A stretch of 64,000 bases of DNA from the NCBI RefSeq assembly GCF_013167455.1, contig NZ_CP038328.1, one strand, 5' to 3'. The notes under the pieces were generated by a model. It saw only the letters and a list, made by a program, of their open reading frames with translations, did no database searches and was not told the DNA's origin. Source of the DNA: Escherichia coli O157:H7. GTDB taxonomy: Bacteria > Pseudomonadota > Gammaproteobacteria > Enterobacterales > Enterobacteriaceae. Within the stretch, counting starts at the first letter, position 1. The number at the start of each line of letters is the position of its first letter. This document shows positions 1,773 through 21,116 of the stretch, piece by piece. Both the position numbers and the translations under genes were made by a program.

Positions 1773-3664
<1,892 letters not shown>

Positions 3665-3678
3665 CTCCGGGAACGCTC

Positions 3679-4347
3679 ATGCAAGAAAGTATACAACTGG
3701 TTATTGATTCCTTGCCGTTCCTGCTGAAAGGGGCTGGGTATACGCTGCAACTCAGTATCGGCGGCATGTTTTTTGGTTTACTGCTAGGGTTTATTCTCGC
3801 GCTGATGCGCCTGTCGCCAATCTGGCCCGTGCGCTGGCTGGCGCGTTTTTATATCTCTATTTTTCGTGGTACGCCGCTCATCGCACAACTGTTTATGATC
3901 TATTACGGCCTGCCGCAGTTTGGTATCGAATTAGATCCCATTCCGTCAGCAATGATTGGTCTGTCGCTCAACACTGCCGCCTATACTGCCGAAACGCTTC
4001 GCGCCGCCATTTCTTCTATTGATAAAGGTCAGTGGGAAGCAGCTGCCAGTATTGGTATGACGCCATGGCAGACTATGCGTCGCGCGATTTTGCCACAGGC
4101 GGCGCGGGTGGCGTTGCCGCCGCTCTCGAACAGCTTTATCAGTCTGGTAAAAGATACGTCGCTGGCCGCGACAATCCAGGTGCCGGAGCTGTTCCGTCAG
4201 GCGCAGTTGATTACCTCGCGTACGCTGGAGGTATTCACCATGTATCTGGCGGCTTCGCTCATCTACTGGATCATGGCGACTGTGTTATCGACGTTGCAGA
4301 ACCATTTTGAGAATCAACTTAATCGCCAGGAGAGAGAACCCAAATGA
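3679..4347 (+). CDS. tcyL: L-cystine ABC transporter permease TcyL (YecS)
   Basis: 222-aa polar amino-acid ABC permease; stop overlaps the downstream ATPase start. Confidence 0.9.
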   Translation: MQESIQLVIDSLPFLLKGAGYTLQLSIGGMFFGLLLGFILALMRLSPIWPVRWLARFYISIFRGTPLIAQLFMIYYGLPQFGIELDPIPSAMIGLSLNTAAYTAETLRAAISSIDKGQWEAAASIGMTPWQTMRRAILPQAARVALPPLSNSFISLVKDTSLAATIQVPELFRQAQLITSRTLEVFTMYLAASLIYWIMATVLSTLQNHFENQLNRQEREPK

Positions 4348-5325: not shown

Positions 5326-6048
5326 ATGCAGGATACGGATTTTTTCAGCTGGCGTCGCACGATGCTGTTGCGTTTTCAGAGGATGGAGACCGCAGAAGAG
5401 GTCTACCATGAAATTGAGCTTCAGGCTCAGCAGCTGGAGTACGATTACTATTCGTTATGTGTCCGCCACCCGGTACCATTCACTCGACCTAAAGTGGCTT
5501 TCTACACCAATTACCCTGAGGCGTGGGTTAGTTATTATCAGGCAAAAAACTTTCTCGCAATTGATCCGGTGCTGAACCCTGAAAACTTTAGTCAGGGCCA
5601 TCTAATGTGGAATGATGACTTATTCAACGAAGCACAGCCGTTATGGGAAGCCGCGCGCGCACATGGTTTACGCCGCGGTGTCACTCAGTATTTAATGCTG
5701 CCAAACCGGGCGCTGGGCTTTTTGTCCTTTTCCCGTTGCAGCGCGCGCGAAATACCCATTCTTAGTGATGAACTGCAATTAAAAATGCAGTTACTGGTGC
5801 GCGAAAGTCTGATGGCTCTGATGCGTTTAAATGATGAAATAGTGATGACGCCAGAGATGAATTTCAGCAAGCGCGAAAAAGAAATTCTGAGGTGGACGGC
5901 GGAAGGGAAGACATCAGCAGAGATAGCGATGATTTTGTCAATCTCTGAGAATACGGTCAATTTCCACCAGAAAAACATGCAGAAAAAAATTAATGCACCA
6001 AATAAGACCCAGGTTGCCTGTTACGCGGCCGCTACTGGCTTAATTTGA
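5326..6048 (+). CDS. sdiA: LuxR-family quorum-sensing regulator SdiA
   Basis: 240 aa from MQDTDFFSWRR...; autoinducer-binding domain plus C-terminal LuxR HTH. Confidence 0.9.
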   Translation: MQDTDFFSWRRTMLLRFQRMETAEEVYHEIELQAQQLEYDYYSLCVRHPVPFTRPKVAFYTNYPEAWVSYYQAKNFLAIDPVLNPENFSQGHLMWNDDLFNEAQPLWEAARAHGLRRGVTQYLMLPNRALGFLSFSRCSAREIPILSDELQLKMQLLVRESLMALMRLNDEIVMTPEMNFSKREKEILRWTAEGKTSAEIAMILSISENTVNFHQKNMQKKINAPNKTQVACYAAATGLI

Positions 6049-6075
6049 TCTCTTTTCTGTCCTGCGTGCCAGATG

Positions 6076-6113
6076 CAAAAACCGGCTGAAAGGCACGCTA
6101 TCAGCCGGTTTTA
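6076..6113. terminator. bidirectional rho-independent terminator between convergent sdiA and yecF
   Basis: aaaaaccggctga...tcagccggtttt: perfect stem flanked by A-run and T-run. Confidence 0.65.
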
Positions 6114-6115
6114 TA

Positions 6116-6340
6116 TTACTGACGGTAGGCTTGTTTAATTTGCTTAACCGTTTTGGAAAATACTGCAGCCTGGGTTTCGTCTTCGATCAGCGCAAGCTGT
6201 TGTTCCATCTTTAACATCACGCGGCCCGCGTCAGCTTGTCCCATCGCCTGCAGCATCAGCGTCAGCATCGCTTTCAGGCAGGAGACTTCATTTGCCAGTT
6301 CTTGATTATTCTCGGCAGTAGAAAAATCAGGCGTACTCAT
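6116..6340 (-). CDS. yecF: small protein YecF (DUF2594)
   Basis: 74-aa ORF on the minus strand in the conserved sdiA-yecF-uvrY position. Confidence 0.8.
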
Positions 6341-6798
6341 TTATTTTCCTCGTCATGTTGCAATGAAAATTTGCGGTGAAAAATGTTAAGGCGGCGGAGT
6401 ATACCATAAGCTTTGCTAAAAATAGCAGTGGTTGTTTTTTGAGCGTGCCGTCAACGGTGCTATTAAATGCGTTAATATAATGACCAATAAATATTTTTAT
6501 CATGAATGTTTTTTGCCCGTATTGTTCGGGTTAATTAATGTTACATATTCAGCGGGCTGATTTTCATTTTTGCTGAATAAAGGTAATTTTTGTCACATTT
6601 CGTCGCAGGGCTTACTGTGAAACGATCCGGTAAGCCGTTGGTGACGGGCGTGACCATAACTGTGGACAATCGAATTGACAAAAACGAGAGAAAAATCGAA
6701 TACCCACCATTTTTAACGTTTCAAAGTTGCAATAAAAACCGCTAATATACGAATGACTAACTATCAGTAGCGTTATCCCTATTTCTGGAGATATTCCT

Positions 6799-7455
6799 TT
6801 GATCAACGTTCTACTTGTTGATGACCACGAACTGGTGCGCGCAGGGATACGACGCATTCTGGAAGATATAAAGGGTATAAAAGTCGTCGGTGAGGCATCG
6901 TGCGGTGAAGACGCCGTTAAGTGGTGCCGGGCAAATGCCGTTGACGTGGTGCTAATGGACATGAGTATGCCGGGCATTGGCGGTCTTGAGGCGACGCGTA
7001 AAATCGCGCGTTCCACAGCTGATGTAAAAATCATCATGCTTACCGTCCATACAGAAAACCCTTTACCAGCGAAAGTCATGCAGGCCGGTGCTGCGGGCTA
7101 CCTCAGCAAAGGCGCGGCTCCGCAGGAAGTCGTGAGTGCGATCCGTTCTGTCTATTCTGGGCAGCGTTACATTGCTTCTGACATCGCTCAACAAATGGCA
7201 TTAAGCCAGATCGAACCAGAAAAAACAGAAAGCCCATTTGCCAGTTTGTCTGAACGTGAATTGCAGATTATGCTGATGATCACGAAGGGCCAGAAGGTCA
7301 ATGAGATCTCAGAACAGCTCAATCTCAGTCCGAAAACGGTGAACAGCTACCGCTATCGTATGTTCAGTAAACTAAACATTCATGGCGATGTTGAGCTGAC
7401 TCACCTGGCAATTCGCCATGGTCTGTGTAATGCGGAGACATTATCAAGTCAGTGA
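6799..7455 (+). CDS. uvrY: two-component response regulator UvrY (NarL/FixJ family; BarA partner)
   Basis: TTG start; receiver domain (VDDH...D) plus LuxR-type HTH; 218 aa. Confidence 0.9.
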
Positions 7456-9284
7456 GTGATCAGTTTGACGCAAAAGCGTTTTTAAAAACCGTAACCAGCC
7501 AGCCTGGCGTTTATCGCATGTACGATGCTGGTGGTACGGTTATCTATGTCGGCAAAGCGAAAGACCTGAAAAAACGGCTTTCCAGCTATTTCCGTAGCAA
7601 CCTCGCTTCGCGCAAAACCGAAGCGCTGGTCGCCCAGATCCAGCAAATTGATGTAACGGTTACTCATACAGAAACCGAAGCGCTGTTGCTGGAACACAAC
7701 TACATCAAACTCTATCAGCCGCGTTACAACGTTTTGCTACGCGATGATAAATCATATCCTTTTATCTTCCTGAGTGGCGATACCCACCCGCGTCTGGCGA
7801 TGCATCGTGGTGCAAAGCATGCCAAAGGTGAATATTTCGGCCCGTTCCCGAATGGCTATGCCGTACGTGAAACACTGGCGCTACTGCAAAAGATTTTCCC
7901 CATTCGCCAGTGCGAAAATAGTGTTTATCGCAATCGCTCGCGTCCGTGTCTGCAATATCAGATAGGGCGCTGTCTGGGACCGTGCGTTGAAGGACTGGTG
8001 AGTGAAGAAGAATACGCTCAGCAGGTCGAGTATGTGCGCCTGTTTTTGTCTGGCAAAGATGATCAGGTGCTTACGCAACTCATTAGCCGTATGGAAACTG
8101 CCAGTCAGAATCTGGAGTTTGAAGAAGCGGCACGTATTCGCGACCAAATTCAGGCGGTGCGACGCGTCACCGAAAAACAATTCGTTTCCAATACCGGCGA
8201 CGACCTCGACGTTATTGGTGTGGCGTTCGATGCGGGTATGGCTTGTGTCCACGTATTGTTCATTCGTCAGGGCAAAGTGCTCGGCAGCCGCAGCTATTTC
8301 CCGAAAGTGCCTGGCGGTACGGAACTGAGCGAGGTGGTAGAAACCTTCGTAGGCCAGTTCTATTTACAAGGCAGCCAGATGCGCACCTTACCGGGTGAGA
8401 TCCTGCTCGATTTTAATCTTAGCGATAAAACGCTGCTCGCCGATTCCCTTTCAGAACTGGCGGGACGCAAGATTAATGTTCAAACCAAACCTCGTGGCGA
8501 TAGGGCGCGTTACCTGAAACTCGCGCGCACCAATGCGGCGACGGCCTTAACCAGCAAACTTTCGCAGCAATCTACCGTTCACCAGCGGCTTACAGCACTT
8601 GCCAGCGTGTTGAAATTGCCGGAAGTGAAGCGGATGGAGTGCTTTGACATCAGCCATACCATGGGTGAACAAACCGTCGCTTCCTGTGTGGTGTTTGATG
8701 CTAACGGCCCGCTGCGTGCGGAGTATCGGCGCTATAACATTACTGGCATCACGCCGGGCGATGATTATGCGGCGATGAATCAGGTGCTGCGTCGGCGTTA
8801 TGGTAAAGCCATCGACGACAGTAAGATCCCGGATGTGATACTTATCGACGGCGGCAAAGGCCAGCTTGCGCAGGCGAAAAATGTCTTCGCCGAACTGGAT
8901 GTCTCATGGGATAAAAATCATCCGCTGCTACTTGGTGTTGCCAAAGGAGCAGATCGTAAGGCTGGGCTGGAAACGCTGTTCTTTGAGCCGGAAGGTGAGG
9001 GATTCAGTTTGCCGCCAGATTCTCCCGCGCTGCATGTTATCCAGCATATTCGCGATGAATCACACGATCACGCGATTGGCGGGCACCGTAAAAAACGGGC
9101 GAAGGTCAAAAATACCAGTTCCCTGGAAACCATTGAAGGCGTCGGGCCAAAACGCCGGCAAATGTTGTTGAAATATATGGGCGGTTTGCAAGGTTTACGT
9201 AACGCCAGCGTCGAGGAAATTGCAAAAGTGCCGGGTATTTCGCAAGGTCTGGCAGAAAAGATCTTCTGGTCGTTGAAACATTGA
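7452..9284 (+). CDS. uvrC: excinuclease ABC subunit C
   Basis: 610 aa; GIY-YIG N-terminus ([22 protein letters not shown]), UvrC signature, C-terminal HhH. Confidence 0.95.
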
Positions 9285-9340: not shown

Positions 9341-9889
9341 ATGCAATTTAATATCCCTACGTTGCTTACACTGTTCCGTGTCATCCTTATCCCATTCTTT
9401 GTATTGGTCTTTTATCTGCCTGTCACTTGGTCGCCGTTTGCCGCCGCGCTCATTTTCTGCGTCGCGGCGGTGACTGACTGGTTCGATGGTTTTCTGGCAC
9501 GCCGCTGGAACCAGAGTACCCGGTTTGGTGCTTTCCTTGACCCTGTAGCAGATAAAGTTCTCGTGGCTATCGCCATGGTGCTGGTAACCGAGCATTACCA
9601 CAGCTGGTGGGTGACCTTACCGGCGGCAACGATGATCGCCCGTGAAATTATTATTTCTGCGCTACGCGAATGGATGGCGGAGTTGGGTAAACGCAGTAGC
9701 GTGGCTGTCTCCTGGATTGGGAAAGTGAAAACCACTGCCCAGATGGTGGCGTTGGCATGGCTGCTGTGGCGTCCGAACATTTGGGTTGAGTACGCCGGTA
9801 TTGCACTTTTCTTTGTGGCTGCGGTACTGACTCTGTGGTCAATGTTGCAATATTTGAGCGCTGCGCGTGCAGATTTGCTTGATCAGTGA
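9341..9889 (+). CDS. pgsA: CDP-diacylglycerol--glycerol-3-phosphate 3-phosphatidyltransferase
   Basis: 182-aa membrane protein with the CDP-alcohol phosphatidyltransferase motif (DGFLAR...G...DPVADK). Confidence 0.9.
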
Positions 9890-10040: not shown

Positions 10041-10116
<76 letters not shown>

Positions 10117-10169
10117 GTTTAAAAGACATCGGCGTCAGCGGATGTCTGGCTGAAAGGCCTGAAGAATTT

Positions 10170-10243
10170 GGCGCGTTAACAAAGCGGTTATGTAGCGGAT
10201 TGCAAATCCGTCTAGTCCGGTTCGACTCCGGAACGCGCCTCCA
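10170..10243 (+). tRNA. cysT: tRNA-Cys (anticodon GCA)
   Basis: 74 nt ggcgcgttaacaaagcggttatgtagcggattGCAaatccg...ggttcgactccggaacgcgcctcca. Confidence 0.95.
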
Positions 10244-10255
10244 CTTTCTTCCCGA

Positions 10256-10342
10256 GCCCGGATGGTGGAATCGGTAGACACAAGGGATTTAAAATCCCTC
10301 GGCGTTCGCGCTGTGCGGGTTCAAGTCCCGCTCCGGGTACCA
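10256..10342 (+). tRNA. leuZ: tRNA-Leu (anticodon TAA), intact copy; prophage integration target
   Basis: 87 nt gcccggatggtggaatcggtagacacaagggattTAAaatccc...ggttcaagtcccgctccgggtacca, with long variable arm. Confidence 0.95.
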
Positions 10343-10408
10343 TGGGAAAGCTAAGAATAAAATCAAAGCAATAAGCAGTGTCGTGAAACCACCTTCGGGT
10401 GGTTTTTT
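10288..10408 (+). repeat. attL: left copy of the ~121 bp direct repeat (3' ~55 nt of leuZ plus its terminator)
   Basis: Nearly identical to 31693-31814 (one indel, one mismatch seen by eye). Confidence 0.85.
10385..10408 (+). terminator. rho-independent terminator of the tRNA operon
   Basis: gaaaccaccttcgggtggtttttt hairpin plus T-run. Confidence 0.7.
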
Positions 10409-10880
10409 CGTATTTGTATTTTGTGCAATGGCGGTAGAGTGGCGATGGTGTGGCGATATGCAGAAACAATGGTAGTGCACGTGCTGTTTAAACTCTAAGG
10501 ATGAAGCAGAATTCTTCTGCAGCTCCTCCGTATTTCGCATAGTGAACCAGGACCTCTGTTAAACAAAAATTTTTCTGGGATTTTTCCACTCGACTTTATT
10601 TTTCCTCCTGCAATCCACCAACAGGTACCTGCGCTAATCTATCTTTTTAATCTGACAACATCTTGGGAAAAGGCAAATTCGTCAGATTTACTGTTTTTCT
10701 GCTGCCTCGAATGCCGATGTCTGAAGCACTGATAAGAGTTCTATCTCTTTGATATAGATCTTTTTTTTGATGAATTGCACGACATATTATCGTTATGACA
10801 CCTTCTTGTTAAAGGTATTGTGCTCCTCATCTCGATTTTATGATGTGGGCTATGATTGGTTAGTAATTGAGTGTATCGGT

Positions 10881-11162
10881 ATGCGATGTGGTTTATTAAT
10901 GGCAATCTGCCTTTGTTTAGTATCTTTTAGTGGATATGCAGCAACAGGAAAGTCTGATGCTCAGATCAAAAAAGAAATAATTAAAGAATCCATTGAATCT
11001 TATCCAGGCAATTGTGCGTGTCCTTATAATCATGCAAGGAATGGTAGTAGATGTGGTGGACGCAGTGCATATAGCCGTAATGGAGGGTATGACGTGGTAT
11101 GTTATGAGGGTGATGTTACCGATGAAATGATCCGGCAATGGAAGCAGGAGAATGCTGAGTAA
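10881..11162 (+). CDS. small secreted cysteine-rich protein of unknown function (prophage cargo)
   Basis: ORF 10767-11162; likely start at the ATG at 10881 (MRCGLLMAICLCLVSFSGYA / ATGKSD... signal peptide); 4 Cys in the mature part; AT-rich. Confidence 0.5.
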   Translation: MRCGLLMAICLCLVSFSGYAATGKSDAQIKKEIIKESIESYPGNCACPYNHARNGSRCGGRSAYSRNGGYDVVCYEGDVTDEMIRQWKQENAE

Positions 11163-11261
11163 TCTCTTTTAACAGGTTTGTTGTGCGAGCATTATGTGCC
11201 GTTAACGGTTCACATCCCGAAAATCTGCGCTTCTGGCTGAAAGCCTGTCCGGTGGTCCTTC

Positions 11262-12398
11262 GTGAGCGATTTCATCAACAATGTAAGTGTAGATTCAATT
11301 GGTCAACGCAACAGTTATGTGAAAACATGGGGTTGCGGAGGTTTGGAACTATGGAAGAACGGAACAGGCTTCAGTGAAATAGCGAATATCCTGGGTTCAA
11401 AACCCGGAACGATCTTCACTATGTTAAGGGATACTGGCGGCATAAAACCCCATGAGCGTAAGCGGGCTGTAGCTCACCTGACACTGTCTGAGCGCGAGGA
11501 GATACGAGCTGGTTTGTCAGCCAAAATGAGCATTCGTGCGATAGCTACTGCGCTGAATCGCAGTCCTTCGACGATCTCACGTGAAGTTCAGCGTAATCGG
11601 GGCAGACGCTATTACAAAGCTGTTGATGCTAATAACCGAGCCAACAGAATGGCGAAAAGGCCAAAACCGTGCTTACTGGATCAAAATTTACCATTGCGAA
11701 AGCTTGTTCTGGAAAAGCTGGAGATGAAATGGTCTCCAGAGCAAATATCAGGATGGTTAAGGCGAACAAAACCACGTCAAAAAACGCTGCGAATATCACC
11801 TGAGACAATTTATAAAACGCTGTACTTTCGTAGCCGTGAAGCGCTACACCACCTGAATATACAGCATCTGCGACGGTCGCATAGCCTTCGCCATGGCAGG
11901 CGTCATACCCGCAAAGGCGAAAGAGGTACGATTAACATAGTGAACGGAACACCAATTCACGAACGTTCCCGAAATATCGATAACAGACGCTCTCTAGGGC
12001 ATTGGGAGGGCGATTTAGTCTCAGGTACAAAAAACTCTCATATAGCCACACTTGTAGACCGAAAATCACGTTATACGATCATCCTCAGACTCAGGGGCAA
12101 AGATTCTGTCTCAGTAAATCAGGCTCTTACCGACAAATTCCTGAGTTTACCGTCAGAACTCAGAAAATCACTGACATGGGACAGAGGAATGGAACTGGCC
12201 AGACATCTAGAATTTACTGTCAGCACCGGCGTTAAAGTTTACTTCTGCGATCCTCAGAGTCCTTGGCAGCGGGGAACAAATGAGAACACAAATGGGCTAA
12301 TTCGGCAGTACTTTCCTAAAAAGACATGTCTTGCCCAATATACTCAACATGAACTAGATGAACCGCCCCGGGTTTCCTGGAGAGTGTTTTATCTGTGA
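11262..12398 (+). pseudogene. IS30 transposase, damaged: canonical N-terminus missing, C-terminus replaced by read-through into IS629
   Basis: ORF matches IS30 Tnp from ELWKNGTGFSEIANILG... to ...LAQYTQHELD; the native start (MRRTFTAEEKASVF) is absent and the last ~12 codons read into the IS629 inverted repeat. Confidence 0.7.
11288..12357 (+). mobile_element. IS30 remnant (left IR TGTAGATTCAATTGGTCAACGCAACAG present; 3' end cut off by the IS629-like insertion)
   Basis: IS30 terminal repeat and transposase recognised from memory; the right end with its IR is missing. Confidence 0.75.
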
Positions 12399-12400
12399 AC

Positions 12401-13291
12401 TCAGGCTGCCAGATCATCGTTTCCGATGGAAGCATAATAAGCTTTTTCTGCTTCTGCCGGAGGAGTATGGCCCAGCCTTCCCAGCAATCGTCGATTGTTA
12501 TACCAGTCCACCCACGTTAGTGTGGCCAGTTCCACTTCTGCACGGTTTTTCCAGCTCTTACGGTGTATTACCTCCGCTTTGTAAAGACCATTGATGCTCT
12601 CAGCCATCGCGTTGTCATACGAGTCGCCTGTACTCCCTGTTGATGCCAGTAATCCGGCTTCTTTTAGTCGCTCCGTATAGGCCAGTGACACATACTGAGA
12701 GCCTTTATCGCTGTGATGGATGGTGCCAGACGGACGACGGGCCCACAACGCCTGCTCCAGCGCATCCAGCACGAATGTCGTTTCCATAGACGATGAGACC
12801 CGCCACCCCACGATGTATCCGGCAAACACATCAATGATAAACGCCACATAGACGAAGCCCTGCCATGTGCTGACGTAAGTAAAATCAGCCACCCACAGCT
12901 GGTCAGGTCGTTCTGCCACGAACTGACGGTTTACGCGGTCGCCTGCGGCAACGGCTTTCCGGCTGATGGTCGTACGGACCTTTTTACCCCGGAGAACACC
13001 GGCAAGTCCCATAACCGCCATGAGACGTGCCACTGTACATCTGGCCACCCTGATTCCTTCCCGTAACAACTGACGCCAGACTTTACGCACACCGTACACC
13101 TGATGATTTTCATCGTATACGCGCTGTATCTCTCTCTTCAGCCAGTCGTCGTGCTGCGCACGGGCACTGCGTTTATCCGGATGATGTCGCTGTTGCTGAC
13201 AATGGTAATACGTTGACGGGGCAATATGCAGTTCGCTGCATACCGGTCCGACCCCGTACTGCTCACGCAGCTTATCCAGCAGTGGCATCAT
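12401..13291 (-). CDS. IS3-family transposase OrfB (DDE integrase domain)
   Basis: 296 aa, [16 protein letters not shown]...; rve-type catalytic domain recognised. Confidence 0.85.
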
Positions 13292-13614
13292 TTTTTCCAG
13301 AGGCGGTCGAACTCCGCCTTCGCAAAATAAGCGGAAGCCTGGCGAAGGATATCGTTACTGCGGCGCAGTTCACGATTTTCACGTTCCAGCTCTTTCAGAC
13401 GCTGACGTTCAGCGCTGGTGAGCCCACCATCACCGCCCCCGGTATCCCGCTCATGCTGGCGAACCCAGACACGCAGAGTCTCCGGCGTACAGCCAATCTT
13501 TGGGGCAATGGAACAAATTGCCGCCCACTGTGAGTCATATTCATCCTGACTTTCCAGAACCATACGAATCGCCCGCTGACGGACTTCGGGGGAAAAACGA
13601 GTATTTTTAGTCAT
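13288..13614 (-). CDS. IS3-family transposase OrfA (HTH / leucine zipper)
   Basis: 108 aa, [22 protein letters not shown]...; overlaps orfB as expected for a -1 frameshift fusion. Confidence 0.85.
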
Positions 13615-13668
13615 CCTGTTTACCTCTTTCTCAGGGAGTTTAGTCTCCAGGATTTCCGGGGCGGTTCA

Positions 13669-14354
13669 ACACGATGGCTGAGGCGATTACCTACCGCCAG
13701 AAATTCAACGAACGTGAGGTGATGCTCTTATGGCCTGACTTCATCGCCTACAACCTGAAAAGTGGCAAAAACGAAACGTTCCCCGCGCCTGCTTATGCGT
13801 GCGGCCTTCGTGCGTACATTGACCATGAGCAGGGCTGGCACAAATCGCTGTCCAACGTTCCGGTTAAAAATGTGCTTGGGATGTCGAGGCATGTGTTCTG
13901 GTCGTTGCAGGCCGAAGACAGTGATGCCAACAGCCTCAACAACAAAGAAATCACGACCATTATTCGTCGCAACGGGTTCCGCTTCTGGGGCAACCGCACA
14001 CCGGAAACGAACGCCTACATCTTTGAGGTGTATACCCGAACCGCACAGGTGCTGGCTGATTCAATTGCGGAAGCGCAGTTTGAAACCATCGACAGTCCAC
14101 TGACACCTGCGAACGTGAAGGATGTTATCAGTGCCATCAGGGCAAAACTGGATTCACTGGTTACTGCCGGGAAACTGATTGGCGCGGAGTGCTGGTATGA
14201 CATCGAGGATAACAGCACCACGAATTTACGTCAGGGGCGTGTGCGTATTCGCTACAAATATACGCCCGTTCCTCCGCTGGAAGACATGGAGCTTTACCAG
14301 TCGTTTACTGATGAATTCTTTGGTCCCGCATTTGCGGTGCTGGGAGGTGCCTGA
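13669..14354 (+). pseudogene. P2 FI-like contractile tail sheath, C-terminal fragment (5' end cut off by IS629 copy 1)
   Basis: 226 codons continuing straight from the IS junction; resembles the sheath C-terminus; a full sheath is ~390 aa. Confidence 0.7.
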
Positions 14355-14866
14355 TGGCTGTACCAAAACATCTTCGCTTTTTTACGCTGTTTGTGGATGG
14401 TGAAAACGAAGTGGGTAAGGTGACGTCCGTCACCCTGCCTAAACTGACGCGCAAAACCGACAGCTACCGGGGTGGTGGCATGATGGGTGCGGTAAGTATT
14501 GACCTCGGCCTGGACGACTCCGCGCTTGATGCGAGCTTTGTCATGGGGGGCGCAGTTCGTGAGCTGTTCCTGAAGTATGGCGGCACGATTGACGGCACGC
14601 TACTGCGTTTTGCGGGGGAATACTACACCGATGATGAAAGCGACCTGTATGAAGTCGAAATGCGCGGACGTGTGACGGAAATTGATATGGGGGAAGCCAA
14701 ACAGGGCGAAGCCACATCACACACTTACGCCATTAAAAACACCTACTACAAGCTGAGTGTTAACGATCGCCCGTTGTGGGAGATTGACCTGCTGAACTTC
14801 ATTTACCGGAAGGACGGCAAGGACATTGTGCCCGATCGCATCCGTTCCGCGCTTGGGCTTGGCTGA
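14354..14866 (+). CDS. P2 FII-like tail tube protein
   Basis: 170 aa; TLPKLTRK...YRGGGMMGA...DLGLDD motif pattern of P2 FII. Confidence 0.8.
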   Translation: MAVPKHLRFFTLFVDGENEVGKVTSVTLPKLTRKTDSYRGGGMMGAVSIDLGLDDSALDASFVMGGAVRELFLKYGGTIDGTLLRFAGEYYTDDESDLYEVEMRGRVTEIDMGEAKQGEATSHTYAIKNTYYKLSVNDRPLWEIDLLNFIYRKDGKDIVPDRIRSALGLG

Positions 14867-14920
14867 TAAGTAATATGCAGGCGGCGCAGTGCGTCGCCTC
14901 TGACTGAAAGGAGTTTCCTG

Positions 14921-15450
14921 ATGAAAGAGACGAAAAACATCGATACCGAAAACACGGTAGTTACTGACACTGTGAAAGAAACCAGTGAGCGTGGTGTAAA
15001 ACTTACCCAACCAATTGAGCGAGGCGGCGAAAAAATCACGTATGTGGAGATCACCGGGGCTATTGAGCAGGCTGGATCTCTGCGAGATTTGTCGCTGTCT
15101 GATGTGCTGAATCTGAAAGCGGAATCCATGTTTACGCTGCTGTCACGCGTGACATCACCGCGACTGGATGAAGTGACGATCAAAAAAATGGCATCCCGTG
15201 ACTTTATTCAGTTATGTGTGGTTGCCGTAAATTTTTTGAGCGGTGCGGACTCTGGCGGGAAGAACGAACAGGCGACGGAAGCCTGATCACGGTTGTGTGC
15301 TTTGAGCACATAGAAGACTTTGTGGCAGATATTGCCGTTATTTTTAACTGGTCGCCCGCCGAAATCTTCATGATGACGCCCGGCGAAGTGGTTAGCTGGC
15401 GTGAGCGGGCGGCACTTCGCAGCGGGAATGCAGACAATGAAGACTCTTGA
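14921..15450 (+). CDS. tail assembly chaperone GpE and its -1 frameshift product E+E' (slippery T TTT TTG at 15232-15238)
   Basis: E frame ends at 15286; an overlapping -1 frame ORF (15214-15450) begins at the TTTTTTG heptamer, the conserved P2 E/E' recoding arrangement just upstream of the tape measure gene. Confidence 0.65.
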
Positions 15451-17527
15451 TATCCGGGTCGCTTTCAGCGCCGTTGACAGGCTGACCCGACCTGCCGAAA
15501 ACGCACGCCGCCTGATGGGGCAGTTTGGTGACTCCATCCAGCGAACGCAGGGGGCGATCAAAAATCTCGAGCGTCAGGCGCGATCATTTGAGCGCGCCCG
15601 CGACGCTGTCAGTAAAGCGGATGCTGGCATCGTGAAAGCACGACGCCAGCTTAACGCCCTTAATCAGTTACAACGCACGGGTACAGTGCTCAGCGAAAAA
15701 CAACAAAAGCTGATGCAGCAGTTAAGCACCCGGCTTGAACGCCTGAATGAATCGCGCACACGGGAAATTCAGAAAATGAGGGAACTTGGCGGAGAGCTGA
15801 AACGCCACGGCATTTCCCTGACAGGCAGCGATAACACCATTCAGCAGGCCATCAGACGCACCGAACAATACAACAACCAGCTTGAACGCGAACGGCAGGC
15901 GCTTGCGCGTGTAACGCAGGCGCGTGAGCGGTATTCGCACGCGCAGGAAACCGCGGGAAAACTGAAAACAGGTGGTGCGCTGGCAATTGGTGCGGCAGCG
16001 GCGGGCGGCTATGCTGCCGGGCGTTTTTTGCAGCCTGCGATCGGGTTCGGCAAAGAGATGTCCCGCGTTCAGGCACTGACGCGAATCGACAAAAACAGCC
16101 CGCAGTTTAAGGCGCTGCGTGAGCAGGCGTTAAAACTTGCTGAAACACAGTTTACTGCGAGTGATGCCGCCAGTGGGCAGAGCTTTCTGGCAATGGCTGG
16201 TTTTACTCCGCAGGCCATTCAGGCCGCATTGCCCGGTGTTCTTAATATGGCGCTGGCAGGTGGCGTCGAACTCGGCGAGACGGCTGATATAGGCTCCAAT
16301 ATCCTCACACAGTTCAACCTGACAGCCGATCAAATGGACCGGGTGGGCGATACGCTGACAGCAGCATTTACCCGGACCAATACTGATTTACGCGCGCTGG
16401 GCGAAACCATGAAGTATACCGGTCCGGTTGCCGCAAAACTTGGTATCAGTCTTGAAGAAGCGGCGGCCATGGCCGGGATGCTTGCCAATAATGGTCTTCG
16501 CGGAAGCGATGCTGGCACGGCCATGCGCGCAAGTCTGTCCCGCCTTGCATCACCGCCAAAAGCTGCGGCTGATGCACTGAAAGAGCTGGGGGTGTCAGTT
16601 GCTGACGCCAGAGGCAAAATGCGCCCGATGGAGGATGTGCTGCTTGATCTCTATAAGGCGACACAAAAATACGGACAGGTGGACCAGGTCTCCTTCTTCA
16701 AGGACATCGCCGGAGAAGAGGCGTTCGTTGGTTTGCAGACGCTTGTTGCGGCGGCTGGTTCAGGAGAGCTGCAAAAACTGACCAGAGAATTGCAGGGGGC
16801 AAGGGGAGAGGCCGATCGCGTCGCAAAAGTAATGGCTGATAATCTTGATGGGGACCTGAAAAATCTCGACAGCGCATGGGAAGGTCTTCGTATTCGCATC
16901 AGTGATCTGGTTGACGGTCCGCTGCGTTCTGTCACGCAGTGGCTCACGCGGGTGCTTGAAAAAATCACCTCGCTGGCGCAGGCCCATCCGGTACTGACGC
17001 GCCAGCTACTGATAGCAGGCGGTGCGTTGCTGGCAATGACTGCAACGATTGGCTCGTTGTCGCTGGTTATTGGGGTGCTTTACGGGAAGCTGGCCACCCT
17101 GCGTCTTGGTTTTGACATTCTTACCCGGTCAATGAATGTCGTCAGGGTGTTACCTGCGCTATGGGGAATGGTGACGGGTTCCGTTTCTTTACTGGGAGGC
17201 GTTATCGGGGCGTTGTTCAGTCCGGTTGGTCTTATCGTGGCTGCGCTTGCCGGAGCTGCCGTTCTTATCTGGAAATACTGGGATCCTATCAGGGCTTTCT
17301 TTGCCGGGGTGTTCAGCGGGATTATGGAAAGGCTGACCCCGTTGCGCGACACCTTTGAACGGTTTGGCCCTGTTTTTGACGTAATCGGAAGCGGTTCAGC
17401 CAGGTGTTTAACTGGTTTAAATCGCTGCTGTCACCGATGGAGTCCAGCAAGGAAACGCTGGATAAATGTACCAGTGCTGGCGAGGTATTCGGTAACGTTC
17501 TTGGTGGTGCGTTACAGCTTGTTCTGA
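15401..17527 (+). CDS. tail tape measure protein (GpT-like), N-terminal reading frame
   Basis: 708 codons, coiled-coil rich with hydrophobic segments; position after E/E'. Frame changes near 17380-17527. Confidence 0.75.
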   Translation: MSGRHFAAGMQTMKTLDIRVAFSAVDRLTRPAENARRLMGQFGDSIQRTQGAIKNLERQARSFERARDAVSKADAGIVKARRQLNALNQLQRTGTVLSEKQQKLMQQLSTRLERLNESRTREIQKMRELGGELKRHGISLTGSDNTIQQAIRRTEQYNNQLERERQALARVTQARERYSHAQETAGKLKTGGALAIGAAAAGGYAAGRFLQPAIGFGKEMSRVQALTRIDKNSPQFKALREQALKLAETQFTASDAASGQSFLAMAGFTPQAIQAALPGVLNMALAGGVELGETADIGSNILTQFNLTADQMDRVGDTLTAAFTRTNTDLRALGETMKYTGPVAAKLGISLEEAAAMAGMLANNGLRGSDAGTAMRASLSRLASPPKAAADALKELGVSVADARGKMRPMEDVLLDLYKATQKYGQVDQVSFFKDIAGEEAFVGLQTLVAAAGSGELQKLTRELQGARGEADRVAKVMADNLDGDLKNLDSAWEGLRIRISDLVDGPLRSVTQWLTRVLEKITSLAQAHPVLTRQLLIAGGALLAMTATIGSLSLVIGVLYGKLATLRLGFDILTRSMNVVRVLPALWGMVTGSVSLLGGVIGALFSPVGLIVAALAGAAVLIWKYWDPIRAFFAGVFSGIMERLTPLRDTFERFGPVFDVIGSGSARCLTGLNRCCHRWSPARKRWINVPVLARYSVTFLVVRYSLF

Positions 17528-18240
17528 CGCCTGCAAAAATGTTGCTGGATACGCTGGCGTGGATACTTGAAAAACTCGGTGTGCTTCCGGATGAAGCGGA
17601 AAGGGCGCGCAAGAAAATCGAAGACGCACAACGTGCGGCCATTCTTCAGGACAAGGTTGCTCTGTTTCAGGGAGACATTGCGAAAATCAATCCGCCGAAG
17701 TCTGCGGGAAATAGCAATGGCACCGGAGATGATAAACCCAAAGACAACAAACCTCTCACAGACAGCAATACCGGCACGCTACGCAGACTCAGCAAAATTG
17801 CTGATAACACAGGTAAGCTGGTTGATGAGACAAAAAAACGCATTGGCCCCGGCGATATTGTCTTTAAGAACCTGCCCCGCGCACTTGCTGTTCGTGGGGA
17901 GTGGCAGGAGCGGAAGATTGCGCAGGTCAGTAAGCCTGCCCCCGCAATTAATATCACACCCGTGGTCCCGGCTCCGCTGCCTCCGGCGCTGGTCCCTGTT
18001 GTTGCGGCCAGCTCCCGCCCGGTGGTGGAGGCCATACGATCGCCAGTGGCATCAGTTCCTGCAACTTCCCGTAACCGGGAGCCTGTTGCCTCCGGATTTG
18101 GCGGTGAAATTCATGTTCATCTGCATAACGTTGTTACGCAGAATCCCCGCGAACTGGCGAAACTGGTCGGCGAAATGGTCAGGGCAGAAATGGAACGGCG
18201 CGCCCGTGCCAGGCGTGGCAGTTTTTACGATAAAGATTGA
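17404..18240 (+). CDS. tail tape measure protein, C-terminal segment in a different frame (apparent frameshift)
   Basis: 278 codons in the +2 frame relative to the upstream part; this frame opens after a stop at 17377-17379. Confidence 0.6.
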   Translation: MFNWFKSLLSPMESSKETLDKCTSAGEVFGNVLGGALQLVLTPAKMLLDTLAWILEKLGVLPDEAERARKKIEDAQRAAILQDKVALFQGDIAKINPPKSAGNSNGTGDDKPKDNKPLTDSNTGTLRRLSKIADNTGKLVDETKKRIGPGDIVFKNLPRALAVRGEWQERKIAQVSKPAPAINITPVVPAPLPPALVPVVAASSRPVVEAIRSPVASVPATSRNREPVASGFGGEIHVHLHNVVTQNPRELAKLVGEMVRAEMERRARARRGSFYDKD

Positions 18241-18246
18241 GGAGTC

Positions 18247-18741
18247 ATGGCCATGATGATGATCTACGGCATGTTTGTTTTTGAGCTGCGCACGTTGCCG
18301 CATCAGCAGTTACAGCAAAACAAAAGCTGGCGACATGTGAAAAATGAACGCGTTAACCGTTCAGCAAGCTGGCAGTATATCGGTGCAGGTGATGATCGCA
18401 TCGTTCTTTCTGGTGTTCTTTATCCTGAGATTACTGGTGGCGAAGTGTCGCTGTCGTTGTTGACCACGCAGGCATATACAGGACGTCCTTGGCCTTTGAT
18501 TGATGGCGTCGGGCAGATTTACGGCATGTATGTCCTGACCGGAACGAATACGACCCGCTCCGAGTTTGATCGCTACGGTAAGGCGAAAAAGATAGAATTT
18601 TCACTGACTCTTGAACGCTGTGATGAGGATTTGCGGGAGCGCCTGCAATCCTCATCGTTCAGCGATATGCTGTCCGGCTTCAAAGATAAGGTGACATCAT
18701 CCCTTAATAGCGCGGCCAGCTCAGTTAAGGGGCTGCTCTGA
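18247..18741 (+). CDS. P2 GpU-like tail protein
   Basis: 164 aa; MMMIYGMFVFELRTLPHQQLQ... resembles P2 U. Confidence 0.8.
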   Translation: MAMMMIYGMFVFELRTLPHQQLQQNKSWRHVKNERVNRSASWQYIGAGDDRIVLSGVLYPEITGGEVSLSLLTTQAYTGRPWPLIDGVGQIYGMYVLTGTNTTRSEFDRYGKAKKIEFSLTLERCDEDLRERLQSSSFSDMLSGFKDKVTSSLNSAASSVKGLL

Positions 18742-19513: not shown

Positions 19514-19930
19514 TTATTGTGGGGCGACTGGCCACTCAACATCCGCTGCTACTGTTGTATCAACACGATTCAACAATACCCGATATGTCTTCCATGCAGC
19601 CAGTAACGATGCCTCTTCCTCCGTCGCAATATCCAAATCTACGGCATCCTGAAGTGGCGCAATATGCTCACTGGCTACCTGCATCAGGCTGTTTTTTGTT
19701 TCTTCTGCCTCCCGTACCCGAAACAGTTTTTCTGCTTCTGCATCTTTCGCCCAGGATGTGCCGTTCCACTTCTGACACTCTCCATCCGGCGACAACCAGG
19801 TAACATTTTCCGGTAACGGACCGAGTTCAGAAATAAATAACGCGTCGCCGGAAGCCACGTCATAAACCGTTTTACCCCGATGATCTTCAACGAGATGCCA
19901 CGATGCCTCATTACTGTTGAAAACAGCCAC
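19514..19930 (-). CDS. tail fibre assembly protein (Tfa family), 5'-truncated; the reading frame continues upstream to 20046 without a start
   Basis: C-terminal Tfa region recognised; the upstream frame 19931-20046 translates [38 protein letters not shown] and runs into IS629 copy 2. Confidence 0.75.
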
Positions 19931-20046
19931 GAAGCCAGCCGGAATATCTGGCGGTGCAATATCGGTACTGTTTGCTGGCAGACCTGTATGAGGCGGAATG
20001 TATGCGTCACCTTCACCAATAAATTCATTAGTTCCGGCCAGCAGAT

Positions 20047-21104
20047 TGAACCGCCCCGGGAATCCTGGAGACTAAACTCCCTGAGAAAGAGGTAAACAGG
20101 ATGACTAAAAATACACGTTTTTCCCCCGAGGTCCGTCAACGGGCAGTCCGTATGGTTCTGGAAAGTCAGGGCGAATATGACTCACAATGGGCGGCAATTT
20201 GTTCCATTGCCCCAAAGATTGGCTGTACACCAGAGACTCTGCGTGTGTGGGTTCGTCAGCATGAGCGGGATACCGGGGGCGGTGATGGTGGACTCACCAC
20301 CGCTGAACGTCAGCGTCTGAAAGAGCTGGAACGTGAAAATCGTGAACTGCGCCGCAGTAACGATATCCTTCGCCAGGCTTCCGCTTATTTTGCGAAGGCG
20401 GAGTTCGACCGCCTCTGGAAAAAATAATGCCGCTGCTGGATAAGCTGCGTGAGCAGTACGGGGTCGGACCGGTATGCAGTGAACTGCATATTGCCCCGTC
20501 AACGGATTACCACTGTCAGCAACAGCGACATCATCCGGATAAACGCAGTGCCCGTGCGCAGCGCGATGACTGGCTGAAGAGAGAGATACAGCGCGTATAC
20601 GATGAAAATCATCAGGTGTACGGTGTGCGTAAAGTCTGGCGCCAGTTGTTACGCGAAGGTATCAGGGTGGCCAGATGTACAGTGGCGCGCCTCATGGCGG
20701 TTATGGGACTTGCCGGTGTTCTCCGGGGTAAAAAGGTCCGTACTACCGTCAGCCGGAAAGCCGTTTCCGCAGGCGACCGCGTAAACCGTCAGTTCGTGGC
20801 AGAACGTCCTGACCAGCTGTGGGTGGCTGATTTTACTTACGTCAGCACATGGCAGGGCTTCGTCTATGTGGCGTTCATCATTGATGTGTTTTCCGGATGT
20901 ATCGTGGGGTGGCGAGTCTCATCGTCTATGGAAACGACATTCGTGCTGGATGCACTGGAGCAGGCGTTGTGGGCCCGTCGGCCGTCCGGCACAGTCCATC
21001 ACAGTGATAAAGGTTCTCAGTATGTATCACTGGCCTATACGGAGCGACTAAAAGAAGCAAAACTGCTGGCATCAACAGGGAGTACAGGTGACTCGTATGA
21101 CAAT
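20047..21104 (+). mobile_element. IS3-family IS629-like element, copy 2, 3'-truncated (~1058 of ~1310 bp), inverted relative to copy 1
   Basis: Left IR TGAACCGCCCCGGGAATCCTGGAG at 20047; similarity to copy 1 stops after ...gactcgtatgacaa (~21104). Confidence 0.85.
20101..20427 (+). CDS. IS3-family transposase OrfA
   Basis: 108 aa, nearly identical to copy 1 OrfA (a few substitutions). Confidence 0.85.
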
Positions 21105-21116
21105 GTATTTTATTAG
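20427..21116 (+). pseudogene. IS3-family transposase OrfB, C-terminally truncated
   Basis: 229 codons versus 296 in copy 1; diverges after ...[11 protein letters not shown]. Confidence 0.8.

Follow-up and report, generated by a model that had tools for sequence, protein, structure and literature searches.

A small cargo gene beside leuZ in the P2-like prophage CP-933T of Escherichia coli O157:H7 encodes a predicted exported member of an uncharacterised protein family

Introduction

Exclusion, stress tolerance, host interaction and other envelope phenotypes can stem from small exported proteins carried by mobile elements, which have received little study. One candidate for such a protein is encoded next to the leucine tRNA gene leuZ of E. 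coli O157:H7, where the degraded P2-like prophage CP-933T (O-island 76) begins. The 93-codon open reading frame found there (ORF hereafter) is represented in RefSeq, on identical coordinates, by the hypothetical protein WP_001303543.1 (EDL933 annotation). Is the ORF a gene, does it belong to the prophage, and what might its product do for the cell that carries it? These questions were addressed in a 64,000-nt stretch of the O157:H7 chromosome (the window), to which all coordinates below refer. As read from the sequence and the list of open reading frames, the ORF extends from an ATG start to a TAA stop at 10881-11162 on the + strand, and the region around it is 100% identical to that of EDL933 and many other O157 genomes.

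Results

The ORF lies between the att repeats of a prophage integrated at leuZ

Upstream of the ORF the window contains uvrC (7452-9284), pgsA (9341-9889) and the genes for tRNA-Gly, tRNA-Cys and tRNA-Leu (10041-10342); on its 3′ side follow an IS30 element, an IS3-family element and P2-type tail genes (FI, of which a truncated copy begins at 13674, followed by FII, E, T and U). The matches returned by a search of the region against Rfam were the three tRNAs and a sub-threshold sroD. According to the EDL933 annotation, the genes remaining in CP-933T are those for the integrase, the repressor/cox region, a replication endonuclease, ParM, tail fibre assembly and the tail, and the head, lysis and baseplate modules are absent. 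The features that place the ORF relative to the prophage ends are the following.

10256-10342, + strand: tRNA-Leu gene leuZ (anticodon UAA), where the prophage integrates (ARAGORN; Rfam tRNA, 57.7 bits; RefSeq).
10288-10424, unstranded: left copy of the att direct repeat, 137 nt, 94% identical to the right copy and comprising the 3′ part of leuZ and a terminator.
31694-31830, unstranded: right copy of the att direct repeat, just past the integrase gene at 30586-31587 ('phage integrase' in EDL933).
10425-10880, + strand: AT-rich leader (GC 0.404) without a coding sequence, identified by reading the DNA and presumed to hold an att arm and the promoter of the ORF.

Since the 137-nt direct repeats bracket it, the ORF belongs to the prophage, and the idea of a separate islet outside the element is ruled out. 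The first-pass annotation of this DNA, made from the sequence alone, had placed the gene at the attL end of the prophage and called it AT-rich. Both statements are borne out, the ORF starting 457 bp from the left repeat, whose terminator was located at 10385-10406 by a terminator scan, and the GC content of the ORF, like that of the 456 bp in front of it, being 0.404 compared with 0.502 for the window and prophage. A conserved leader was also found in two further sequences of E. coli type, those of strain 720632 and metagenome contig L003, but no alignment with Salmonella could be made.

Related prophages carry hok, ogr and D alongside the ORF

The ORF had originally been interpreted as standing in the place where P2 would carry D/ogr. 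This proved to be wrong, as other strains and Salmonella have hok, ogr and D in addition to the ORF. In these relatives leuZ is followed by the ORF (+), hok (-), ogr (-), in some cases a variable insert, D (-) and FI (+). This arrangement was seen in E. coli 720632, KFu022, C3 and O26:H11, in Salmonella enterica and in metagenome contigs of 35 kb, and the ORF occupied the same position in all nine of the E. coli and Salmonella loci of this lineage that were examined. As the insert between ogr and D, the metagenome contigs carry a Thoeris system (SIR2/STALD plus TIR), O26 a YecA-family gene and KFu022 a restriction-enzyme remnant; in the latter strain, the ORF is retained although only roughly 3.5-4 kb of the prophage are left (leuZ to yecA).

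Homology of the O157 sequence to 720632 and L003 ends at about 11212, just before a terminator-like repeat that is shared with hok. This GC-rich inverted repeat, recognised by eye, lies 3′ of the gene in other strains and is missing in O157, where the following elements succeed one another instead.

11163-11212, + strand: remaining part of the native 3′ flank of the ORF (alignment with strain 720632 and L003).
11213-11287, - strand: internal fragment of a P2-type gene D, approximately codons 88-115 (88% blastn match to L003 4880-4961, in the Phage_GPD gene of that contig).
11288-12358, + strand: IS30, 3′ truncated, with its left inverted repeat at 11288 and a transposase ORF (11262-12398) that reads into the next element.
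12359-13670, - strand: IS3-family element (IS629/IS1203) cutting IS30; the right end at 13670 is approximate.

Judging from these alignments, the junction at 11212/11213 marks a deletion by which hok and ogr were lost together with the distal two thirds of D, leaving the 3′ flank of the ORF fused to internal D sequence. It is because of this mapped deletion that hok, ogr and most of D are missing from O157. IS30 inserted after the deletion, within what remains of D, and the IS30 remnant reported earlier to follow the ORF is indeed present, being cut at position 12359 by IS629/IS1203. The insertion of the latter is associated with the loss of the 5′ fragment of D and of the 5′ part of the sheath gene FI; the D fragment and the start of FI are still present in EDL933 and gone from this window.

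The ORF is a gene under purifying selection

Of 5426 complete E. coli genomes, 605 contain DNA of the ORF, 580 of them at least 80% of its length; identity is at least 99% in 381, and the reading frame is intact in 580 genomes. Among E. coli alleles, dN/dS values were 0.19, 0.17 and 0.08. The protein of O26:H11 is identical to that of O157, comparison with the syntenic Salmonella gene yielded a dN of 0.26 with synonymous sites saturated, and the O157 ORF keeps every residue that is invariant in the family described below. The ORF is a real gene under purifying selection. That the region might act as an RNA element was also considered; codon-level selection argues against it. Two findings named beforehand as fatal to the reading of the ORF as a gene of its own, namely a want of conservation and an origin as a piece of a larger gene, are contradicted by its retention in those 580 genomes, on the one hand, and by its own start and predicted signal peptide, on the other; in addition, 191 of 278 sampled relatives are stand-alone proteins of at most 125 aa.

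A longer, 131-aa version of the product, starting at TTG 10767 and appearing as a 130-aa protein in many metagenome gene calls, was rejected, its extension being absent from Salmonella and other relatives. Because the upstream extension is non-conserved and precedes a canonical signal peptide, ATG 10881 was retained as the start. It is preceded by a weak ribosome-binding site (GAG, 11 nt 5′ of the ATG). A scan with the consensus sigma-70 promoter gave no + strand match for the ORF, which is why we can only infer its promoter from the candidate -10 elements TATGAT (10839-10844) and CTATGATT (10850-10857), picked out by eye; the two TATGAT elements sit 25-42 nt 5′ of the ATG. The proximal TATGAT is preceded by a C (CTATGATT), a feature resembling many sigma-S promoters that we note as a lead.

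The product bears a predicted Sec signal and four invariant cysteines

The motifs quoted in the first-pass annotation, ESYPGNCACPYNH, RCGG and VVCYEG, are all present in the ORF. Its product begins with M-R, continues with a hydrophobic core, CGLLMAICLCLVSF, and then reads S-G-Y-A|A, the maximum 10-residue Kyte-Doolittle mean being 3.26. Based on a heuristic call (n/h/c anatomy, hydrophobicity and small residues at -3/-1), the precursor may be divided into two parts.

10881-10940, + strand: predicted signal peptide, residues 1-20 (MRCGLLMAICLCLVSFSGYA), from n/h/c-region anatomy and the -3/-1 rule.
10941-11159, + strand: mature domain of ~8 kDa (~70 aa), predicted to form a helix, a cysteine-rich loop and a second helix (alignments and AlphaFold2).

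Signal peptidase I is predicted to cut after A20 (G18-Y-A20|A21) or, alternatively, after G23, and a comparable hydrophobic N-terminus is found in 169 of the 179 short family members that could be tested. Seven cysteines occur in the precursor, at positions 3, 10, 12, 45, 47, 58 and 74, the first three of them within the signal peptide. A lipoprotein was discarded in the absence of a lipobox, C10 being preceded by M-A-I and C12 by I-C-L, and conservation in the family does not extend to the cysteines of the signal peptide. C45, C47, C58 and C74, in contrast, are invariant across the family in alignments. The earlier description of a small protein with a signal peptide and four cysteines thus agrees with a product of 93 aa displaying Sec-type anatomy and these four residues.

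The phage relatives of 53 aa (TL-2011b type, phrog_14503) have counterparts of C45 and C58 but of neither C47 nor C74. C45-C58 and C47-C74 probably pair as two disulfides. That C47 and C74 are lost together while C45 and C58 stay suggests structural disulfides rather than a Cys4 metal site or a redox CxC motif.

The mature domain defines a large family

A word-indexed search recovered 235 homologues, all unnamed, ranging from 96-99% identity (E. coli-type) down to ~45-50% and originating from Salmonella, Oxalobacter, Pseudomonas and many metagenomes. When a profile of the mature domain was compared to 1.84 billion cluster representatives (clusters at 50% identity), 2252 representatives were matched at E<=1e-3 and 1368 at E<=1e-10. 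The family spans several classes of Pseudomonadota and includes a Desulfobacterota member; 89 diverse sequences showed a mean column identity of 60%. Its motif, S-I-x-x-Y-P-G-x-C-x-C-P-Y-N-x-x-x-N-G-S-x-C-G-x-R-S-A-Y-S-R-x-G-G-x-x-x-x-C-Y-x-x-D-V, is preceded by an N-terminal 'SD' helix cap and an amphipathic helix and followed by a second helix. AlphaFold2, run on the mature domain with the 89 sequences, returned a model with a pLDDT of 90.5 and a pTM of 0.78 in which helix 6-20 and helix 61-71 flank an irregular cysteine-rich loop with two short bridges.

Neither Pfam nor NCBIfam nor PADLOC (0 families at E<=1) returned a match for the ORF protein, the sole Pfam line, Sclerostin at E 0.0026, being dismissed as a cysteine-pattern artefact. 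A sequence-profile search of the PDB yielded chance matches to calicivirus proteases only (E>1), and neither sequence nor fold similarity to any PDB chain was found. The modelled mature domain appears to be a fold without a solved relative. In keeping with the view of the ORF as cargo of unknown function, a functional assignment was absent from every library searched.

Among phage protein families, phrog_27544 ('unknown function') matches residues 13-93 on positions 1-81 of its 81-position profile (E 7.2e-58) and represents the same family, catalogued from prophages. More distant matches to phrog_14503 ('membrane associated protein', moron category; E 6e-7) and phrog_3117 (E 2e-6) correspond to phage proteins of ~53-77 aa in which a signal peptide precedes the core C...NGSRCGGRSA.SRPGG loop; this central loop is all that they have in common with the ORF domain. 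The 53-aa 'transmembrane anchored protein' of TL-2011b (MKKAFAALFVLLSLVASTQAFA|GRCQHDSDTAADGSRCGGRSADSRPGGGGIR), for example, aligns with YPGNC...RCGGRSAYSRPGG. Because both helices and the second cysteine pair of the ORF domain are missing from the 53-aa phage proteins, we regard the latter as a minimal version and not as the same domain.

A few relatives in AFDB bear the names DUF3761 (2 among the 50 AFDB50 relatives listed), DUF2282 (two AFDB relatives) or 'hemolysin'. Pfam DUF3761 (PF12587) matched neither the ORF protein nor the 89 members scanned singly nor the 53-aa phage relative, a threshold of E<=10 having been used for the first sequences, and Pfam DUF2282 matched neither the ORF protein nor the 89 members. 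Given the lack of a PF12587 match, kinship with DUF3761 amounts to an unproven resemblance.

Relatives occur on phages, plasmids and islands without a conserved partner

A tblastn search with the E. coli protein against 50,697 deposited phage genomes, which were taken to include the reference P2-type phages, gave no match, none of these records containing a full-length copy, and a consensus query retrieved from them the 53-aa minimal relatives only. Family members are present on 119 plasmid records, 44 of them conjugative, from hosts that include Xanthomonas (35), Pantoea (30), Escherichia (8), Klebsiella (6) and Rhizobium (6). On a 4.6-kb ColN plasmid, the homologue is located directly 3′ of the gene for the Exc2 entry-exclusion lipoprotein, on the same strand. 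Others reside on a MobA/MobL plasmid-like contig and in genomic islands, among them islands of Pseudomonas, and IMG/VR contributed 49 viral loci or contigs. Twenty of the IMG/VR loci are diverged, and in the 18 of these whose flanking genes were scanned the neighbours were tail fibre, terminase/spanin, tape measure, DNA methyltransferase, integrase, head-morphogenesis or anti-repressor genes, or nothing recognisable. No conserved neighbour gene emerged across the Pseudomonas, metagenome, plasmid and 18 diverged viral loci. A constant association with hok fails as well, this gene being a convergent neighbour in the E. coli and Salmonella relatives, deleted in O157, and absent from the plasmid, viral and Pseudomonas contexts examined. 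The mixed viral neighbours point to a moron-type distribution, with placement at module junctions without a conserved partner. The first-pass annotation had also proposed that the gene is prophage cargo, which is upheld by its position inside the att repeats, its atypical base composition and the want of a full-length copy in the 50,697 phage genomes. The ORF is a moron, an additional gene outside the life cycle of the phage itself, and constitutes the conserved att-proximal cargo of a P2-like prophage lineage integrating at leuZ.

Domain architectures were drawn from the best 150 matches and are biased to close relatives. Fifty of the 278 sampled members exceed 160 aa, and 41 of these longer proteins were scanned singly with Pfam. 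Their partner domains were SH3_3 (14), SH3_4 (8), PG_binding_1 (3) and SNase, the staphylococcal nuclease domain (3), which the family domain may precede or follow; about half of the longer members had no recognisable partner, and several are tandem duplications of the domain. One longer member appeared by eye to contain an Excalibur-like motif, for which a Pfam scan gave no confirmation. The fusions place the domain outside the cytoplasm beside wall-binding and nuclease modules, without showing that it binds anything itself. On its surface the invariant positions are occupied by Arg, Ser, Tyr, Asn and Gly, a set that we infer from sequence to be typical of sites for anionic or glycan ligands.

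Discussion

A periplasmic binding module as the favoured explanation

The explanation that we favour is that the ORF encodes an autonomous, Sec-exported periplasmic binding module with two disulfides, carried as a constant att-proximal moron and probably expressed in stationary phase. Taken as a whole, we consider its chances to be slightly under even. Its parts differ in strength: that the ORF is a gene whose product is exported and that serves as prophage cargo is very probable, and that the product is a binding module is a tentative proposal, to which we would give about one chance in three. Export, disulfides, binding function and ligand are all predictions read from sequence. Transcription of the ORF is probably RpoS-dependent.

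Under this explanation, the 93-aa precursor would be exported by Sec, signal peptidase I would remove its first 20 or so residues, and the mature ~8-kDa domain would fold in the periplasm as two helices around a glycine-, serine- and arginine-rich loop stapled by the C45-C58 and C47-C74 disulfides. The domain would act alone, with no need of a partner gene, and would bind an envelope component such as peptidoglycan or another anionic polymer. Binding may alter a property of the envelope, probably for the most part in stationary phase, to the benefit of the lysogen and hence of the element. The export signal and the SH3, peptidoglycan-binding and nuclease fusions in relatives make a role at the envelope, one of the two suggested in the first-pass annotation, the most reasonable guess; binding to an envelope polymer is put forward because these fusions are like those of accessory modules and because of the conserved Arg/Ser/Tyr/Asn/Gly surface.

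Alternative explanations

An envelope-level exclusion or defence factor, which would overlap with the favoured reading, comes next, with perhaps one chance in five. The protein would block the entry of a competitor phage, colicin or conjugative plasmid by masking a periplasmic or outer-membrane component or by disturbing the translocation of DNA or toxin, in the manner of some exclusion proteins of prophages and plasmids. Such a role would suit a single autonomous gene carried almost only by mobile elements at moron positions, and it would agree with the location of the ColN homologue directly after the Exc2 gene. P2-like prophages are known reservoirs of anti-phage genes (PMC9122126), and the ORF lies ~0.7 kb to a few kb from the ogr-D slot in which Thoeris, TIR-domain proteins or restriction-enzyme remnants are found. 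It nevertheless lies outside that variable slot and is constant in nine of nine loci, whereas defence cargo typically varies; PADLOC gave no match, and an exclusion protein would not be expected to appear in chromosomal proteins fused to SH3, PG-binding and SNase domains. Bolder, and improbable in our estimate, is the proposal that the domain founds an unrecognised extracytoplasmic fold, used as a one-gene envelope device across phages, plasmids and islands of Pseudomonadota. One possibility within this proposal is that the domain binds peptidoglycan or another envelope polymer so as to block entry or lysis by a competing phage, colicin or plasmid, in which case it would form a new exclusion/defence class.

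About as improbable is a periplasmic inhibitor or orphan immunity protein that would neutralise an envelope-acting enzyme or a competitor's toxin, the targets envisaged being a peptidoglycan hydrolase, a lysozyme, a nuclease or a delivered toxin, by analogy with Ivy/MliC/PliC and with type VI secretion immunity proteins. The size, predicted export signal and disulfides would suit the format of a periplasmic inhibitor; a staphylococcal-nuclease/Excalibur gene lies two genes away in a Pseudomonas locus, three members are SNase fusions, and lone genes on mobile elements are what orphan immunity genes often are. However, no cognate toxin or enzyme gene was regularly adjacent in the neighbourhoods examined, and no sequence or fold similarity to known inhibitor families was found. 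Immunity proteins are moreover fast-evolving and lineage-specific, whereas this domain is strongly conserved (the 60% mean column identity over 89 members), and fusion to the protein's own target enzyme, like tandem repetition, would be unusual.

We consider it quite unlikely that the product is a metal-binding or redox protein with a Cys4 zinc or copper site, or with a strained CxC disulfide like the CPC motif of Mia40, acting as a periplasmic metal buffer, a chaperone or a thiol oxidoreductase. The four invariant cysteines, including a C-(P/A)-C-P motif, invite this reading, as do a very weak match of residues 26-47 of the 73-aa mature construct to the RIM2a_ZnF zinc finger (E 0.04-0.6) and the two AFDB relatives named after DUF2282, a family of copper-binding bufferin precursors. 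The minimal phage relatives, on the other hand, keep one cysteine of the CxC pair and C58 and lose C47 and C74 together; Pfam DUF2282 failed to match the ORF protein or any of the 89 members; and thiolate metal sites are rare in the oxidising periplasm. Genes for maturation enzymes (MNIO/DUF692) were not seen in the neighbourhoods examined, in which the neighbours are tRNA genes, hok, ogr or unrelated genes.

Finally, the ORF might be a functionless leftover, inactive in O157, at the protected edge of a prophage remnant that has lost its head, lysis and baseplate modules, carries several IS elements and lacks the terminator-like repeat downstream of the ORF as well as a detectable consensus promoter, a reading equally unlikely in view of the frame intact in 580 genomes, the dN/dS values of 0.08-0.19, the identity of the O157 and O26 proteins, the retention of all invariant family residues and the probable RpoS-dependent transcription.

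Significance

A small point of O157 annotation is settled by this analysis, in that the 'hypothetical protein' by leuZ is a real, selected gene with a predicted export signal. Beyond O157, a family of at least 2252 clusters has been delimited for which the resources searched held no Pfam model, solved structure or published function. With a confident structural model and a single gene of 282 bp, the proposals made here are easy to test. Were the protein to be an exclusion or defence factor, an extracytoplasmic, single-domain type would be added to a defence catalogue that is mainly cytoplasmic; were it only a generic wall-binding module, the outcome would be a routine family description.

Comparison with known systems

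DUF3761 proteins consist of a signal peptide followed by a short glycine-rich loop closed by cysteines. The ORF protein shares this general format with DUF3761 (PF12587), likewise a small exported domain without an assigned function. A DUF3761 protein with a signal peptide has been described inside a phage lysis cassette, its function not being given there (PMC11131426).

The morons of P2-type phages (old, tin and Z/fun; the defence hotspot of Rousset et al. 2022) resemble the ORF in being non-essential, of atypical composition and located at a module boundary; expression from the lysogen is plausible for the ORF. Unlike them, the ORF sits between ogr and att, next to hok, and is constant rather than variable within its lineage; its product is predicted to be exported, whereas theirs are cytoplasmic, and shows no similarity to catalogued defence proteins.

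T4 Sp, exclusion proteins of the Exc/Trb type and the inhibitors Ivy, MliC and PliC are proteins of ~70-130 aa with a Sec signal, often disulfide-bonded, encoded by a single gene and benefiting the carrier cell through an effect at its envelope. The ORF protein has the same format without similarity to them in sequence or fold, and differs in that its domain is also used as a module beside SH3, PG-binding and nuclease domains. In this last respect it resembles the accessory binding modules Excalibur, bacterial SH3 and PG_binding_1, which occur alone, in tandem or appended in exported proteins; the ORF domain, too, is found on its own, repeated in tandem or attached to SNase and wall-binding domains, but its motif differs from theirs and a Pfam model is absent. 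The ORF is an element of an ordinary kind, a prophage moron for a small protein predicted to be exported, backed by an uncharacterised family.

A deletion beside the ORF has removed hok, ogr and two thirds of gene D

The O157 prophage CP-933T is without hok, ogr and two thirds of gene D, all of which are kept in O26 and other strains. The junction of this deletion was placed at window position 11212/11213, where the 3′ flank of the ORF is joined to an internal piece of a P2-type gene D. Within window 11163-11288, this piece matches a Phage_GPD gene at 88% and is directly followed by the left inverted repeat of IS30. The RefSeq annotation places a gene across this site:

Window 11183-11377: 64-aa "hypothetical protein" WP_115801851.1

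Since its frame covers the deletion junction, the wrong-sense gene D fragment and the IS30 inverted repeat, WP_115801851.1 is very likely a spurious gene call. A second mobile element lies further along the prophage:

Window 12359-13670: IS3-family element (IS629/IS1203), truncating the IS30

Compared to EDL933, the insertion of this element is associated with a missing 5′ fragment of D and with a sheath gene lacking its first ~170 codons. The element's terminal repeat (TGAACCGCCCCGGG) recurs at window ~20047, adjoining a partial IS3 transposase, and this second copy could have mediated further deletions.

The ORF is retained in a short prophage remnant of KFu022

In E. coli KFu022, the entire prophage has shrunk to roughly 3.5-4 kb (locus L021, 3373-7462), and what is left of it consists of the ORF, hok, ogr, a gene fragment, an IS1 and a restriction-enzyme remnant, followed by yecA. 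The ORF is intact despite this reduction. Its survival could be due to selection, or solely to protection by the neighbouring hok module.

A variable cargo slot, further genes of the prophage and a family member on a colicin plasmid

In loci L003, L023 and L021, the stretch that separates ogr from D holds different genes and is thus a variable cargo slot of this prophage lineage. These genes, and those in an IS-scrambled region of L002, are the following:

L003 (metagenome contig) 2095-4010: Thoeris (SIR2/STALD plus TIR), ogr-D slot in metagenome contigs
L023 (O26:H11) 5349-6488: YecA-family gene, ogr-D slot
L021 (KFu022) 5333-7031: restriction-endonuclease remnant, ogr-D slot
L002 (strain 720632) 15214-16282: TIR-domain genes in an IS-scrambled region

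Two further genes of the window prophage were considered:

Window 30233-30580: 115-aa gene with a signal peptide (MKVKKVQLLVTFLSMFSFSAVA...), a DUF2511 protein per the EDL933 annotation
Window 19514-21116 region (EDL933 locus L024 16134-17280): serine O-acetyltransferase gene

The DUF2511 gene is located directly upstream of the integrase, at the opposite end of the prophage from the ORF; as predicted from their signal peptides, small exported proteins are therefore encoded at both prophage ends. The serine O-acetyltransferase gene, found between gene U and the tail fibre assembly gene, may represent further prophage cargo.

A relative of the ORF product is carried by a 4.6-kb colicin N plasmid:

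L012 (ColN plasmid pE956_3) 3026-4262: 100-aa family member

The gene for an Exc2 entry-exclusion lipoprotein lies on one side of it, and a gene of unknown function encoding 104 aa on the other. All three genes share one strand, so this may be an accessory operon.

Gene order relative to P2

In P2 itself, ogr and D lie downstream of the tail genes on the same strand. In this lineage, in contrast, the transcription of ogr and D diverges from that of FI-FII-E-T-U (window 13674-18741 compared with L003, L009 and L022). The tail/late-control block is thus rearranged relative to P2.
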